64,000 bases of DNA from Octopus vulgaris (GCA_951406725.2 OX597816.1:163928001-163992000); one strand, 5' to 3'; shown: positions 21,223 to 27,329, numbered from the stretch's first letter. Program-made: numbers and translations. Notes: generated from the letters alone by a model not told the origin.

Positions 21223-22701
21223 TCTCTCTCTCTCTCTCTCTCTCTCTCTCTCTCTCTCTATATATATATATATATATATATATATATATATATGCCAAGG
21301 AGTTGGTTCTAGGTTCAGTCCCGCTGCGTGGTACCTTGGACAAGTGTCTTCTACTATCGCCTCGGGCCGTCCAAAGCCTTCACAGTGGATTTGGTGACGG
21401 AAACTGAAAGAAGCCCGTCGAATATATATATATACACATATGTGTATGCATACAAATAAACACACGTATCAGTAAATATATATATATATATATGTACACA
21501 CGCATGCACACTCACACGCAAATATATTAGAGGTAAAGTGGAGGGTGTTGTTTGGCGTGAAACAATTTGAGAAATAAATGAATAAATAAATAAATAAATA
21601 AATAAATAAATAAATAAATGAATAAATAAATAAATAAATAAATAAATAAAGGCCAACATGCACCGATGTTGTTTAGTTCCCCTACCAACATCGCTTTCCC
21701 AACCAACCAGCCGACAGACCGACCGACCGACCGGCCAGTCAGCCTGCCAAACCAGCCAGCCTGGCAGTCAAACACACAAACATTCGTTTTTCAAAGCGAC
21801 TATTTCTGCTCTATTCAACTCTCTATATTTCTTCCTTTTTCAAACTCTTTCCTTCCATCATTCTATCGTTTATTATATACGAACACGTGCACATATGTAT
21901 GTGTATATATATATATATATATATATATATATATATATATATATATATATATATATATATATTTGTGTGTGTGTGTGTGTGTGTAAAAGTAAAAAAATAC
22001 AAACTGGGACAAGAACGTGAAACATTTAGAAGACGACACAAAAACACAAAAATCTTCAGTCAAGAACCGGATCATCTTCGCAGTTTCGGGTGATTAATCT
22101 TGAGATTGCTCCGACCTGGCCAGCCCCAAAGGAAAATCTAAGCCAAGCGCGTTAGCTTCCTTGGAAGAAAGCCTCGAATGTATACAAAACAAGGACGGAA
22201 AAACGGACGATGTTACACGAATAAGAATACAAAAATACGTAAAAACAATAATGAAAATAATAACGACAAAAACAGGACGTCACGGACAGGCGTCTTTTCG
22301 ACAGGACGAGTAAATTTTTTGAGCTGGCGTTAGAAGAGAGCCTTAAGGCTACAGAGAGACATATATATATACATATATAATTTTATTCTTTTCACTCATT
22401 TGACTGCGGCCATGCTGGGACACCCCTTTTAGTCGAACGAATCGATTCCGGACCTATTCATTGTAAGCTTTGCACTTATTCAATCGGTTACTTTCGCTGA
22501 AACGCTATGTTATGTGGACGTAAGCACACCAACATCGGTTGTCAAGCGATGGTGGGAGGACAATCACAGATACACACAAATGTATATATATATATATATA
22601 TATATATATATATATATATATATATATATATATATATATATATATATATATATATATGAATAAATGAAAGAATGGAGTCGAACGAAGATGTTAACAAAAT
22701 T

Positions 22702-22794
22702 CCTTTACTCTCGACACATGTTTCGAAGACAGCATGTTCTCATTCCAAAGGGATAAAGGGTGCATTATGCAATCTTCTCATCAGGGAAGAAAGG
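22702..22794 (-). ncRNA. Hammerhead ribozyme motif, type I, long stem II
   Basis: Minus strand reads CCUUUCUUCC-CUGAUGA-GAAGA...UCUUC-GAAA-CAUGUG-UC-GAGAGUAAAGG. Core is intact, triplet is GUC, stem I is imperfect. Confidence 0.7.
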
Positions 22795-23123
22795 GAGTCT
22801 CTCTCGACAACAAGACAAACAAAAATTTCGATGATTGCCTACATGGTAAACAAAGCGATAATGAGTGTTTCTTTAAAAAAAACGTGTTTTCTGATGTGAA
22901 TTTGCTACCCAGGTTTCGGTTAAACGAATTTTCCATGCTGACGATAAACATAGGATAATTCATTCACCTACTTATATATATATATATATATATATATATA
23001 TATAGTTTTTAGTAGCAATAACATACAGCCACACAAGCATACATACATACATATACATACATACACGAACGCACGTACTCAGAATGGGTTAAGTGGAGCA
23101 AGGATACACAGGGAAACGAAAAG

Positions 23124-23168
23124 TGTCGCTGAAGAGGTCACAGGTGTGTGACAAAAGATTTCCAGACA
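23124..23168 (+). ncRNA. Degenerate hammerhead motif
   Basis: UGUCG-CUGAAGA-G-GUCACA ggug UGUGAC-AAAA-GAUU-UC-CAGACA. Stem II is intact but GAAA has decayed to AAAA. Confidence 0.4.
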
Positions 23169-23429
23169 ACGGACATAAAATAAATGAGAACAGTATTAAA
23201 TGAGTGAAGAAAAGATATAGATATATCATGCATGTTTATTTGACAAAAAAAACTTAATTATAAATAAAATGACCATCCCGAAATACAATAATATCTGTTT
23301 CAACACACGATTTCACATCAGGAATCTTGCAAAACGAGTTGATAAATGTAGATAGATAGATAGATAGATAGATAGATAGATAGATAGATAGATAGATAGA
23401 TAGATAGATAGATAGATTCAAATATAAAA

Positions 23430-23470
23430 TGGCTGACGACTAGCAACACACTTGAAACTCAAGAGTACCA
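23430..23470 (+). ncRNA. Hammerhead motif with intact core and decayed stem II
   Basis: UGG-CUGACGA-cuagcaacacacuu-GAAA-CUCaaGAG-UA-CCA. Confidence 0.5.
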
Positions 23471-23727
23471 ACGAATTTGAATCAGTCTGTTTTGATCCAT
23501 ACATGTAACTCACAATAAATTCTTTCGTTTGTCTACTCACTCGTATGTATATATATATATATATATATATATATATACACATAAATATATATAAAAGTAT
23601 ATATATATATATATATATATATATTGATAGAAATGGTAAGACACAAAAGAATGAAAGATGCCTCGATATTATGTAAATAGAGGAATTTATCTGTAAATAT
23701 AATATGTGACATTTATTCGGTAGCCAT

Positions 23728-23788
23728 GATAAAACTCCGAGTTTCGGATGTCGGAGCGGAAATCCACGCCGCCATCTCTTCAGTTATC
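23728..23788 (-). ncRNA. Hammerhead ribozyme motif, type I
   Basis: Minus strand reads GAUAA-CUGAAGA-GAUGgCGGcGUGGAuuUCCGCuCCGaCAUC-C-GAAA-CUCgGAG-UU-UUAUC. Stem I is 5 bp and stem II is long, with a one-base register offset. Confidence 0.65.
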
Positions 23789-23903
23789 GGGCCATCGATT
23801 TTTTGATAGCACTTTTTCGATTATATTTAAAGATATATATATATATATATATATATATATATATATATATATATATATATATATATATATATATATATAT
23901 ATA

Positions 23904-24882: not shown

Positions 24883-25034
24883 ATATATATATACATATAT
24901 ATATATATATATATATATACATATATATATATATATATATATATATATATATATATATATATATATATATATATATATATATATATATATATATATATAT
25001 ATATATATATATATATACATATATATATATATGT

Positions 25035-25376
25035 AAGGTAAAGACACCCCTTGGTCATGAATGACCATAGCGCTGCACCTAGAAAGTTCCCTTCCGAGGC
25101 ACAAGGTCGGGCAAGGTTGTTTGGGGAAGACCAGGGGTCGCCCATGCATACCAGCCTCCCCTCTTCATGCCATTGATGTTCTCCAAGGGAAAGGCAAAAG
25201 CCGGTACAGCTTTGCACCAATGACGTCGCAATTCATTTCTACAGCTGAGTGAACTGCAGCAACGTGAAATAAAGTGTCTTGTTCAAGAACACAACACACA
25301 ACCCGGTCCAGGAATCGAACTCACTACTTCATCATTGTGAGTCCGACGCTCTAAACACTAAGCCATGTGCCTTCAC
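25035..25376 (-). mobile_element. SINE family B
   Basis: Homologous over its length to 6527-6890. Confidence 0.85.
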
Positions 25377-25715
25377 TATGTGTTTGTGTGTGGGTGGTGG
25401 TGGTGCGTGTGTGTATGTGTGTGTGTGTGTGTCTGTGTCTGTGTGTGTATGTGTGATATTTTGGGCTAATGGGTATATATCGATTAGTGTGTTGTAGTGT
25501 TGAGTAAAGCACTGGCCCAGTTTGGGCTACCTGGTGTCATGCGCAGTTGGGGTATAGTTCCGTTGGAACTACTTCAGGAATTCCGCCAGAGGATGGATTT
25601 GGTATTACCTCTTTTTTTGTACGTCGATCGTTGACTTACTTATTTTTCTAAAATTTCCGTTGCTTCTTACAACCTTTTCAATGAAAATTTTGAAAAATAA
25701 GTAAATGAGTAAATA

Positions 25716-26100
25716 GGCGCAGGAGTGGCTGTGTGGTAAGTAGCTTGTTTACCAACCACATGGTTCCGGGTTCAGTCCCACTGCGTGGCACCTTGGGCAA
25801 GTGTCTTCTACTATAGCTTCGGGCCGACCAATGCCTTGTGAGTGGATTTGGTAGACGGAAACTGAAAGAAACCCGTCGTATATATGTATGTGTGAGTGTG
25901 TTTGTCCCCCTAGCATTGCTTGACAACCGATGCTGGTGTGTTTATGTCCCCGTTGCTTAGCAGTTCGGCAAAAGAGACCGATAGAATAAGTACTGGGCTT
26001 ACAAAAGAATAAGTCCTGGGGTCGAGTTGCTCGATTAAAGGCAGTGCTCCAGCATGGCCGCAGTCAAATGACTGAAACAAGTAAAAGAGTAATAAAAGAG
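25716..26100 (+). mobile_element. tRNA-derived SINE family A, full length (CORE-like; resembles octopus OR-type SINEs)
   Basis: A-box-like tggctgtgtggt, B-box-like ggttcagtccc, CORE-like gcaccttgggcaagtg, an internal TA/TG microsatellite and an aagtaaaagag tail. More than 15 copies or fragments occur in the window. The family name is from memory and unverified. Confidence 0.9.
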
Positions 26101-26159
26101 AATGGATATTTTACCGGTGAGTGTGTTAAATTATAAGGCACTAAAAGAGAATGGCTCAC

Positions 26160-26894
26160 CCAAGACACAACAAAATATGCTCCTAGAGTACTATTCTGAC
26201 CTCGGCTGCAGAATTCATATTTTTCCCGTCGAAAATGATTTTGAAGACTGCGGAATAAATGATAATCAGTTGGGACGATGTCCGGCGAATATGGTGGATG
26301 GGGCATCGTTTCCCATTCAAACTGCTCCAGCCTTTGGAAGGTCATCCTTGCTTTATGCGGCCGAGCATAATCCTGATGGCAGAACACCGTTTGTCTTGAA
26401 ACCGAAGATGGTAGTTTTCCAATGGCAGGCAGTTGAATTACCAAATCCAAGCTTGTCTGCTGGTTCCTCATCAGTTACGCTGGGACTTTGCACCACCAGG
26501 GTTTGCAAGACGTCCTCGTCCAGCTCTACAGATCTTCCAGGACGATGCTTGTCTTCTAGGCTGTAGTTTCCGGCTCGGGTTTTCTATAACCACCGTTGAT
26601 ACTAGCTTACGCTTATTGTCCAATCCCTACATGTTGTATTAATATTCCTCGCATCTTCCGTTGCGCTGTCCCCTCAAAAAGCAAAATATGCTGAATATGC
26701 TCCTTTGTCACATCCATTAGTTTTGAAAAAATAACTGTTAAAATCGAACTGCACTCTTCAAAACTTGCACTAAGAATAAGCACAAGGTAAAATTACTACC
26801 TGCTTTTGTAGCAAGTTGATGCAGGTAGTTTATCCCGTCTCCCTCCGACTTGTTCATGCAATTGAAAACACTGCATTATTTATGGATGACCCAA
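26160..26894 (-). pseudogene. Internally deleted, frameshifted mariner (DD34D) transposon
   Basis: Left TIR ttgggtcatccataaataatgcag is preceded by TA. ATG at 26717 gives MDVTKEHIQHILLFE; HTH-region remnant AGNYSLEDKHRPGRSVELDEDVL; catalytic remnant HQDYARPH...PHPPYSPDIVPTDYHLFRSLQN. The second TIR was not found. Confidence 0.88.
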
Positions 26895-26964
26895 TATATA
26901 TATATTTAGGTAAAATCATATTAATGTGTCCTTCTGTTCTAATTTAATTAAATTCTATGTCATT

Positions 26965-27058
26965 ATGCAGCTGAAGATTGCTCTACATTTTAAATTGAAG
27001 TAATGAAATGATTGCATTGTTCAATTAAATGGAGTTGCATGAAACGATCGTACTGCAT
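26965..27058 (+). ncRNA. Type I hammerhead motif with long AU-rich stem II
   Basis: AUGCAG-CUGAAGA-UUGC...GCAU-GAAA-CGAUCG-UA-CUGCAU. Stem I is 6 bp, stem III is palindromic, and predicted cleavage is after 27052. Confidence 0.75.
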
Positions 27059-27329
27059 TACCTCTGGATATCCTTGTTGTTTATTTTGACTTATATCTGT
27101 CGTTTTCTTTAAGTCTTGTCATTTATCGTTTGTTTATGTTTTCGTCGCCGTCTTCTACGTTCGCTCTCTTATCTCTACAGCGTTTTACTACTGACTCGAC
27201 GAAAACAAACAATCTTATTGAGAAGAGCGTGAAATTGTGATGTTTCTCAGCCGATAACTGATGAGGGATCAGCATGTCCATGCTTCGTTTGTGATTTTAC
27301 CTTGTCATAAATTTTGCACAGACACACAC

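Follow-up and report, generated by a model that had tools for sequence, protein, structure and literature searches.

Seven dissimilar hammerhead ribozyme motifs in Octopus vulgaris DNA as probable stacked ends of unrelated retroelements inserted into (TA)n

Why should seven dissimilar hammerhead ribozyme motifs lie within 4.4 kb of octopus DNA? In a 64,000-nt stretch of the Octopus vulgaris genome (hereafter the window), the original prediction had reported such a cluster and read it as an insertion hotspot for non-autonomous, ribozyme-bearing retroelements that prefer (TA)n. We found all seven motifs at the positions and on the strands first given, each in type I order and with a palindromic stem III, and refer to the families carrying them as A to G. 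The layout is less even than 4.4 kb suggests, with six inserts stacked in 2.2 kb (22658-24882) and the G insert 2 kb away beyond unrelated repeats. Simple-repeat tracts separate the six stacked inserts over 22583..25032 (no strand assigned), consisting of (TA)n at 22583-22657, 22973-23004, 23544-23624, 23822-23913, 24286-24321 and 24883-25032, and (TAGA)n at 23349-23417. The seven families have no sequence in common (best local alignment scores of 16-26), which rules out local duplication as the source of the cluster, and each motif belongs to a different dispersed repeat family with more than 1,100 first-look candidates. The explanation that we consider very probable is that the cluster consists of the stacked, truncated 3′ ends of seven unrelated families, inserted successively into (TA)n by enzymes of Penelope-like elements (PLEs).

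The motifs might instead be chance matches in AT-rich, repeat-rich DNA. A strict hammerhead descriptor recovered one of the seven (E, 24029-24077), the minimum-energy folds of the monomers mostly differ from the hammerhead fold, and the Rfam hammerhead model, proposed earlier as a check, gave no match among the 23 with E<=10 in 22650-24880 or among the 150 listed of 781 matches in the whole window. By a relaxed, scored descriptor (cut-off score of at least 18), which was tuned on these very motifs and misses decayed copies, six of the seven pass, whereas 1000 block-shuffles of 22650-27100 yielded 0.016 passes on average and never more than 1; over the whole window there were nine passes versus 0.24 expected (100 shuffles). 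These nine include three outlying motifs with cores at 2300-, 46035+ and 49163+, matching those anticipated at 2261(-), 46026(+) and 49159(+). Five extra cores in 22301-27500 (22938+, 24409+, 26402+, 26474- and 27258+) had no complete type I fold by descriptor.

The core CUGANGA ... GAAA ... UH is intact in six window copies; the exception is B, rightly described from the start as decayed, which reads AAAA where most family copies read GAAA. The C motif fails the relaxed descriptor, its stem II being broken, and 5 of 11 other C loci pass, with the core conserved among copies. Departures elsewhere are family traits and not decay: stem II has A-C at its base in family F and U-U in family G, and D shows an extra C with a GUU cleavage triplet. 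Stem covariation was assessed in 15 copies of the A lineage, 13 of them chosen because of an RT match or an attached ORF: pairing was present in 90% of cells (34-52% in slid controls) and 7 of 24 pairs had changed on both sides, a score reached by 0 of 500 shuffles in a control inflated by the relatedness of the sequences. Copies of the other families are too similar or too few for this comparison. With the shuffles, the compensatory changes and the location in PLE pseudo-LTRs described below, the chance reading is largely refuted and retains hardly any probability; the seven hammerhead motifs are real.

In computed folds, stem III forms no hairpin in any of the seven isolated segments, while the self-duplex of stem III reaches -6.0 to -11.2 kcal/mol in six of them (0.0 in B), and cleavage is predicted solely for dimeric motifs within tandem precursor RNA. 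Dimer-cleaving variants of PLE hammerheads were reportedly described by Lunse et al. in 2017. Every motif in the cluster is a lone copy, no family having a second complete hammerhead there; because of this and the missing stem III hairpin, it looks unlikely that RNA transcribed here from the two strands would cut itself, and the lone copies are probably inert passengers. We also weighed whether the host has co-opted the array for RNA processing, as a cassette cleaving transcripts of both strands. The motifs do occupy both strands, that of E is well formed, and any transcript of the inverted arms in E and F would fold into long hairpins. Against this, the B and C motifs are decayed, that of D has its GUU triplet, no dimer partner is present in the cluster, the window copies are at least as divergent from their families as other copies are, and the window ORFs show no evident host gene (intronless ORFs were considered). 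Moreover, published PLE minimal hammerheads fail to cut as monomers (PMC4209133) or need the PLE protein (PMC11167929), so that co-option seems very improbable.

The source of the inserts is clearest for families A and D. Family A (3386 first-look candidates) is represented by a 5′-truncated pseudo-LTR with the near 3′ end (22658..22885, - strand), head-to-head with a second, inverted piece that carries the far 3′ end and its tail (22880..22974, +); its type I hammerhead at 22702-22794 (-, core 22784) has a GUC triplet and the stem III ACAUGUGU. In three loci (L105, L107 and L110), family A sequence comes after an ORF with reverse transcriptase (RT) and GIY-YIG regions, in which LYRDD, SDKT and GIY-YIG-like motifs are present. 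Related ORFs of 899 aa were found in many equal-scoring copies and also in 3.6-kb tandems with a hammerhead in each repeat. Open frames of the A lineage (592-908 aa) encode RT followed by a C-terminal GIY-YIG domain, for which the Pfam match is weak (E 0.035, below the cut-off). SDKT (DKG changed to DKT) was found in all 8 long A-lineage ORFs reaching that region and in a family D locus (L058), CxxCxxE in 15 of 16 ORFs, and the N-terminal motif RWL in 6 of the 6 matching the pattern (MRWK in D). By eye, CxH is present in the printed A-lineage C-termini and CCHH is absent. The CxCX5C linker is absent from all 16 long A-lineage ORFs examined and present in two homologs (P0001 and P0009). Family D (23625..23798, -; 1146 candidates; hammerhead 23728-23788, -) is followed in locus L058 by an ORF start with RWK and DKT, and 4 of another 8 loci have a hammerhead region that continues towards such a start; the D ORF was seen as a broken 5′ half. 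The 3′ ends of both families enter TA-type repeats in nearly all loci printed.

Judged by these sequences, A and D are truncated pseudo-LTR ends of autonomous-type PLEs of the Hydra clade, D marking a second such element; the assignment is by motif comparison with the published description. Craig et al. (2021, PMC8557442), who list the Octopus bimaculoides element Hydra-1_Obim among the C-terminal EN+ members of this clade, describe a single ORF with RT before GIY-YIG, DKT, CxxC and CxH around conserved E and N without CCHH, a hammerhead in the terminal repeat, insertion in (TA)n, and tandem and inverted copies, all as seen here; the likeness to Hydra-1_Obim is one of these clade features. Unlike those elements, the A lineage has RWL for RWK, replaces CxCX5C by a low-complexity linker rich in N and S, has a unit of 3.6 kb (generally <3 kb in that account) and ends in a tail of roughly 150 nt, and we file A as a putative Hydra-type lineage that has lost the linker and not as a typical member. 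The motifs also agree with the minimal type I hammerheads that Cervera and de la Pena (2014, PMC4209133) portrayed in PLEs of metazoans: stem I is short, stem II is long or varies in length, there is an additional base at 9/10.1, the palindrome of stem III suits dimers, and one genome holds many unrelated families, with lone and opposite-strand copies. They differ in that the G10.1-C11.1 pair is absent in F, G and C as a family trait. The proposal that the cluster carries Penelope-type hammerheads was thus borne out, whereas calling the elements non-autonomous suits E and F and not A and D.

Families E and F are parts of tandem units. Family E (1631 candidates) has the near 3′ end of a 482-nt unit at 23910..24113 (-), with the best-formed hammerhead of the seven at 24029-24077 (-), and an inverted copy with the far 3′ end at 24108..24287 (+); the 482-bp head-to-tail period was seen in locus L024. 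Family F (1357 candidates) has the far 3′ end of a young 546-nt unit at 24322..24678 (-; hammerhead 24603-24678, -), and an inverted copy with the near 3′ end at 24676..24882 (+), a 199-nt arm that is 99% complementary and is without CUGAUGA. Rfam matches to miRNA models arise from simple repeats and from this inverted repeat. Copies of F are 99-100% identical, copy pairs lie 546 bp apart, and four loci (L003, L013, L017 and L020) show the 546-bp period with a type I hammerhead per unit. The longest ATG-ORFs are 36 aa (E) and 40 aa (F), GC contents are 0.33 and 0.39, and as circles both fold better than shuffles (z of -5.0 and -2.9); contigs of presumed-RNA runs span the F unit and one wraps round, as either tandem DNA or RNA would. 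A MITE identity was rejected for both families, in which the inversion point varies between copies and direct tandems exist.

As non-coding, head-to-tail units, E and F appear retrozyme-like, and they satisfy the retrozyme criterion of non-coding sequence with GC below 45%. Like the metazoan non-LTR retrozymes characterized by Cervera and de la Pena (2020, PMC7229834), they are low in GC with one type I hammerhead each; their lengths, here of DNA units, exceed the 170-400 nt circles given there and fall within the 51-972 bp range indicated by Li et al. (2026, bioRxiv 10.64898/2026.07.22.740005), where partial monomers, dimers and trimers dispersed beside autonomous PLEs are likewise noted. By contrast with those retrozymes, E and F carry PLE-type inverted ends and tails.

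The remaining inserts are hammerhead-bearing ends. Family B (23078..23348, +; hammerhead 23124-23168, +; 4836 candidates) is older, at 78-86% identity; family C lies at 23418..23543 (+; motif 23430-23470, +; 1622 candidates) and its longer copies have about 1 kb of non-coding-looking upstream sequence; family G (26900..27092, +; hammerhead 26965-27058, +, stem III ACGAUCGU; 2586 candidates) has longer copies with about 2 kb of AT-rich upstream sequence, which in 10 loci contained no RT or GIY-YIG frame. Thus extension into a Penelope ORF or tandem repeats, suggested as a check with the original prediction, was found for A and D (ORF) and for E and F (tandems), with neither for B, C and G. No PLE ORF or autonomous partner was seen for B, C, E, F or G in the loci examined, by an ORF profile built from the A lineage that distant PLE clades could escape, and mobilization of these five by Hydra PLEs is therefore suggested by shared end structure only. 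They could alternatively be circular-RNA elements in their own right, each bearing a ribozyme and mobilized by an RT from outside the PLEs such as that of a LINE, in keeping with the absent ORF, the circular folding of E and F and the LINE fragments frequent in retrieved loci. This we hold to be improbable, as these families resemble A and D in having two fixed 3′ ends, inversions arranged head-to-head, (TA)n on their flanks and a stem III that is palindromic, the printed ends carry no poly(A) tails, and Xenopus retrozymes match PLE pseudo-LTRs in the account of bioRxiv 10.64898/2026.07.22.740005.

The inverted ends of the A, E and F inserts offer a view of how insertion by PLE enzymes may proceed. 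Among 55 inverted insertions, 39 joined a near to a far end, 2 joined the same end twice and 14 were atypical, a count that omits L105 as a duplicate of L040 and is biased by A and E queries that held the window's own inverted junction. Examples are family A locus L036 (near end 152, far end 302) and family E locus L021 (ends 194 and 308); tails are about 50-150 nt compared with 30-40 bp in published elements, and 3 of 14 ends had a hairpin with z below -2 just before the 3′ end. The near-plus-far pairing fits two-site priming, and in vitro work on a Poseidon element explains the tail by two RT start sites (PMC11167929), to which this near/far end rule is a genomic counterpart.

On the successive-insertion model, PLE-encoded endonuclease and RT would insert elements into (TA)n tracts one by one. 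From published PLE biology, the GIY-YIG domain would nick AT-rich DNA and RT would begin downstream of the ribozyme, using either of two fixed sites, and even the shortest insertions would therefore keep the hammerhead; we infer that priming of the two target strands at different sites would leave one end with a tail and one without. Each insertion would split its tract into two new targets, and unrelated families would therefore align without interrupting one another. Family identity, dispersal, the ORF link of A and D, the tandems of E and F, the (TA)n flanks and the inverted ends are observed; the order of insertions and tract splitting belong to the model. Against it, A-lineage ORFs are without the CxCX5C linker that is associated with (TA)n targeting in the Hydra clade (PMC8557442).

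Does such a stack need a special locus? In 1.2 Mb of unselected DNA there were 70 independent hammerhead insertions from 50 families (>100 by Chao1), a density of about 0.058/kb over 2.8 Gb that extrapolates to about 160,000 hammerhead-bearing insertions and about 190,000 motifs genome-wide, or about one motif per 15 kb; the motif estimate greatly exceeds the 2,000-9,000 per genome reported in PMC4209133, which were counted with different descriptors. The expected number of clusters this dense is 0.9-1.0 per genome (Poisson) or 2.9-4.7 with mild heterogeneity (gamma-Poisson), and none of 120 unselected 10-kb stretches had a 4.2-kb span with more than 2 insertions. Because this density predicts about 1-5 such clusters per genome, the locus is a dense but ordinary spot in the extreme tail. 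The proposed preference for (TA)n held up: in background DNA, 24 of 29 insertions had (TA)>=5 no more than 400 bp away, versus 37% of random points; across quartiles of (TA)n density, hammerheads per 10 kb were 0.1, 0.5, 1.2 and 0.6, with no steady rise.

A true hotspot beyond (TA)n preference, due to open chromatin or to insertions that lengthen flanking (TA)n and draw more PLEs, strikes us as rather unlikely, and it is compatible with successive insertion, differing in degree only. Speaking for it are the crowding of six inserts into 2.2 kb, the presence of old B (about 80% identity) beside young F (99-100%), a (TA)n share of 16% in 22571-25040 versus 2.8% in background, and the tract expansion after insertion noted for plant microsatellite-targeting elements (PMC5907723). 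Yet beyond the number of clusters expected by chance, other-family density beside family copies is only about 1.3-1.6 times background (23 matches in 305 kb), and the flanking 100 kb hold 15 and 4 insertions, compared with 9 in the window. The original hotspot claim was therefore overstated, although the cluster is far above the local mean.

The cluster itself requires no new biology, and its parts are further members of classes already known. Hammerheads in PLEs, their targeting of (TA)n, their inverted ends and tails, and a Hydra element from octopus have all been published before. An architectural parallel is offered by the SaTar arrays of guayule and rice, which in the account of Valdes Franco et al. 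(2018, PMC5907723) are unrelated small elements end to end, microsatellite-separated and not interrupting one another; SaTars are plant Mutator-like DNA transposons without ribozymes, whereas the octopus modules are retroelement ends. A Mutator-like identity was rejected here, as internal inversions vary by family without fixed terminal inverted repeats, and the layout alone is alike. Penelope elements of Adineta vaga, as presented by Arkhipova et al. (2013, PMC3846280), share head-to-head inverted pseudo-LTRs, a tail on one end and asparagine-rich ORF inserts, and differ in clade, host, a 31-bp tail and low copy number. We found no census of cephalopod hammerheads in non-subscription literature on octopus or cephalopod hammerheads or the Hydra clade, and ribozymes go unmentioned in the main text of a repeat annotation of octopus from 2026.

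A bolder reading, which we advance tentatively and with more doubt than belief, is that this is one of the most hammerhead-dense genomes among animals, in which Hydra-type PLEs, with one linkerless lineage among them, still drive transcribed, A-to-I edited retrozymes that encode no protein (E and F), and in which inverted insertions record two-site priming. If true, a linkerless Hydra-type lineage would target (TA)n without the zinc-finger linker thought responsible, and inverted insertions would be records of two-strand priming in which each target strand uses a different fixed RT start site, the sites lying 50-150 nt apart, so that the way PLEs integrate could be read off their copies in the genome. 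Young Hydra-type ORFs with two young retrozyme-like families provide a ready pair for trans-mobilization tests, and the estimate of hammerhead-bearing insertions is a useful by-product. More generally, microsatellite-targeting retroelements may build non-nested arrays of unrelated modules, like plant SaTar transposons.

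All seven type I hammerhead motifs of the original prediction were found in the window (G000:C3:163928001-163992000, part of a 2.80-Gb assembly): A at 22702-22794 (-), B at 23124-23168 (+), C at 23430-23470 (+), D at 23728-23788 (-), E at 24029-24077 (-), F at 24603-24678 (-) and G at 26965-27058 (+). A strict descriptor detected only E. With a scored descriptor, which allowed one defect per stem plus a palindromic stem III and was tuned on these very motifs, six of the seven were detected, where 1000 shuffles gave 0.016 on average, and the whole window yielded nine motifs, where shuffles gave 0.24. 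The window copy of C fails this descriptor, and other C loci pass (5 of 11). All three outlying motifs, at 2300 (-), 46035 (+) and 49163 (+), pass as well; close relatives of the first two lie in background stretches (locus L275; locus L258 and the left flank). No hammerhead occurred among the 23 Rfam matches listed for 22650-24880. The hammerhead motifs are real. At 27220-27300 (+) lies a further CTGATGA core; before it stands GCCGATAA, shared with family D, and after it comes a short hairpin without a downstream GAAA. This core matched none of the retrieved loci, and it may belong to a hammerhead that has decayed or whose parts are in another order.

Six of the inserts are stacked at 22658-24882, separated by (TA)n and (TAGA)n tracts, with G set apart by other repeats. 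Local duplication is contradicted by the sequences, since inserts A-G are unrelated, and each proved to be a dispersed repeat family in searches of the genome (first-look candidates, of which the best 40 per search were scored and which are not copy numbers: A 3386, B 4836, C 1622, D 1146, E 1631, F 1357, G 2586). The inserts are probably of different age, because the identity of the best copies ranges from 99-100% in F, through 96-99% in A and E, 92-96% in D and G and about 90% in C, to 78-86% in B. The odd features of some hammerheads are shared across their families: F has an A-C opposition at the stem II base, G has U-U, and D has an extra C as well as the triplet GUU. In 12 loci of B, 12 of C and 25 of G, a profile limited to Hydra-like proteins turned up no ORF. 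In L220/L221 and L217 the sequence upstream of the G hammerhead is AT-rich for about 2 kb; no ORF was recognised in it, and it contains an internal duplication (~70% identical, period about 860 bp).

Among the other repeats, a fragment at 26064-26890 of the window is 80-86% identical to loci L232 and L242; its minus-strand frame, which we take to resemble a mariner transposase, had no Pfam match. The common short repeats of the assembly resemble octopus SINEs, and a 184-bp SINE-like unit forms two separate tandem dimers, at 11992-12362 and 19928-20284.

The cluster had been proposed as an insertion hotspot, which we weighed against chance density in a background sample of 120 stretches, each 10 kb long, placed at round coordinates across 31 contigs. 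In this background the scored descriptor picked out 82 motifs, which reduce to 70 independent insertions belonging to 50 sequence families (Chao1 143), with 3, 8 and 3 false matches in three shuffles. Extrapolated to the genome, these counts correspond to about 190,000 motifs from about 160,000 insertions. Because no 4.2-kb background span held more than two, six is a large local excess. When the whole 2.8 Gb is considered, however, a scan approximation leads us to expect 0.9-1.0 clusters this dense under a Poisson model and 2.9-4.7 with the observed overdispersion, so a cluster of this kind is within genome-wide expectation. Motifs of other families adjoining family copies numbered 23 in 305 kb (28 less 5 matches to C itself), 1.3-1.6 times background. 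The assembly is rich in simple repeats, and the proposed (TA)n preference was borne out: 24 of 29 insertions in the first 600 kb of the background sample had (TA)>=5 no more than 400 bp away, compared with 37% of random points. In plants, unrelated elements that target microsatellites are known to form arrays in which no element breaks up another (PMC5907723).

Families A and D are ends of Hydra-type Penelope-like elements (PLEs), so the suggestion that the inserts are non-autonomous does not hold for them, although it does for the retrozyme-like E and F. With 176 aa of the A-lineage ORF (the RT and GIY-YIG frame adjoining the family A hammerhead region) as query, the best 150 of 9274 candidates include many equal-scoring copies with 899-aa open frames, three of them arranged as a 3.6-kb tandem in which every repeat carries an A-like hammerhead. 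Locus L182 (G000:C1:119513500-119523400) and the copies of this search represent a young family of Hydra-type PLEs, with open frames of 899 aa, 3.6-kb tandems and an N/S-rich linker where CxCX5C would stand. In L106 and L110, fragments that we judged by eye to be Helitron-like helicase and Rep adjoin family A insertions. In D, the hammerhead of locus L058 is followed by the start of a broken ORF, which has RWK and DKT; in eight further loci chosen by this ORF start, the hammerhead region continues towards it in four, is partly present in one, inverted in two and absent in one. The A lineage has DKT, (TA)n targets, and CxxC and CxH around the conserved E and N in common with the Hydra clade (PMC8557442); unlike that clade, all 16 long A-lineage ORFs lack the CxCX5C linker, which is replaced by an N/S-rich stretch but is kept in database homologs. 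File S1 of the same source includes Hydra-1_Obim from Octopus bimaculoides with a (TA)n preference. Of the homologs of the retroelement protein, a single one carries a species name, Argonauta hians; together with the SINE-like short repeats, this suggests an octopus as host. Across 15 A-lineage hammerheads, 90% of cells were paired and both sides had changed in 7 of 24 pairs, also at the middle of the stem III palindrome; this covariation score was reached by 0 of 500 shuffles, a control inflated by the relatedness of the sequences.

Tandems of the retrozyme type were found for both F (head-to-tail, 546-bp period) and E (head-to-tail, 482 bp). Their units hold no ATG-ORF longer than 40 aa, have GC contents of 0.39 (F) and 0.33 (E), and fold as circles more stably than 60 shuffles (z -2.9 and -5.0). 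E and F are retrozyme-like and fit the non-LTR retrozymes described in PMC7229834; a 2026 preprint (bioRxiv 10.64898/2026.07.22.740005) derives such retrozymes from PLE pseudo-LTRs. A seven-unit array at L112:2307-4513 (about 359-bp period, two orientations, compact well-formed hammerhead) is a further putative retrozyme-like family.

Most families have two preferred 3' ends downstream of the ribozyme, about 50-150 nt apart (sharpest in A, E and F, faintest in B) and usually continuing into TA-type repeats. Head-to-head inverted insertions joined a near to a far end in 39 of 55 cases, two far ends in 2 and an atypical end in 14, in a sample that omits L105 as a duplicate of L040 and is biased by inverted junctions in the A and E queries; for the young families A, E and F, near-far pairs made up 29 of 34 with no same-site pairs, and their window copies obey the rule. 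A tail on one inverted end only is already in print (PMC3846280 and PMC8557442), and a purified Poseidon protein nicks both strands and extends them, its RT starting at two internal sites that delimit the tail (PMC11167929). We infer that a single event primes both target strands, using these two sites.

In predicted folds, none of the seven isolated stem III segments formed a hairpin and six formed a self-duplex. This matches the dimer design that PMC4209133 reports for PLE hammerheads, whose monomers did not cut. No second complete motif of the same family lies within the cluster for any family, and the inverted arm of F lacks CUGAUGA. Contigs of sequencing runs, compared with the family F reference, differed by T-to-C on the plus strand, that is A-to-G on the ribozyme strand, at 8/19 and 14/25 differing places in two presumed-RNA runs, 1/8 and 4/24 in two others, and 0 and 1 of 18 in two large runs of unrecorded kind presumed to be DNA, a comparison with guessed run kinds, differing organisms and low depth. 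Thirteen of the changed positions are T in all 22-30 aligned genomic copies. These differences hint, for the family and not for this locus, at possible A-to-I editing of F retrozyme RNA. At the family F unit L017:1385-1955, an A-to-G excess on the ribozyme strand was seen in runs X1 and X3 (presumed RNA), and a 577-nt contig of run X16 wraps around the F unit (546 + 31).

The element kind, ribozyme design, target and end structure are already in print. Our literature searches turned up no published census of hammerheads in cephalopods, so the families and the estimate of density are probably new, within known kinds. The array is the dense tail of a genome-wide load of (TA)n-targeting PLE ends and retrozyme-like units.
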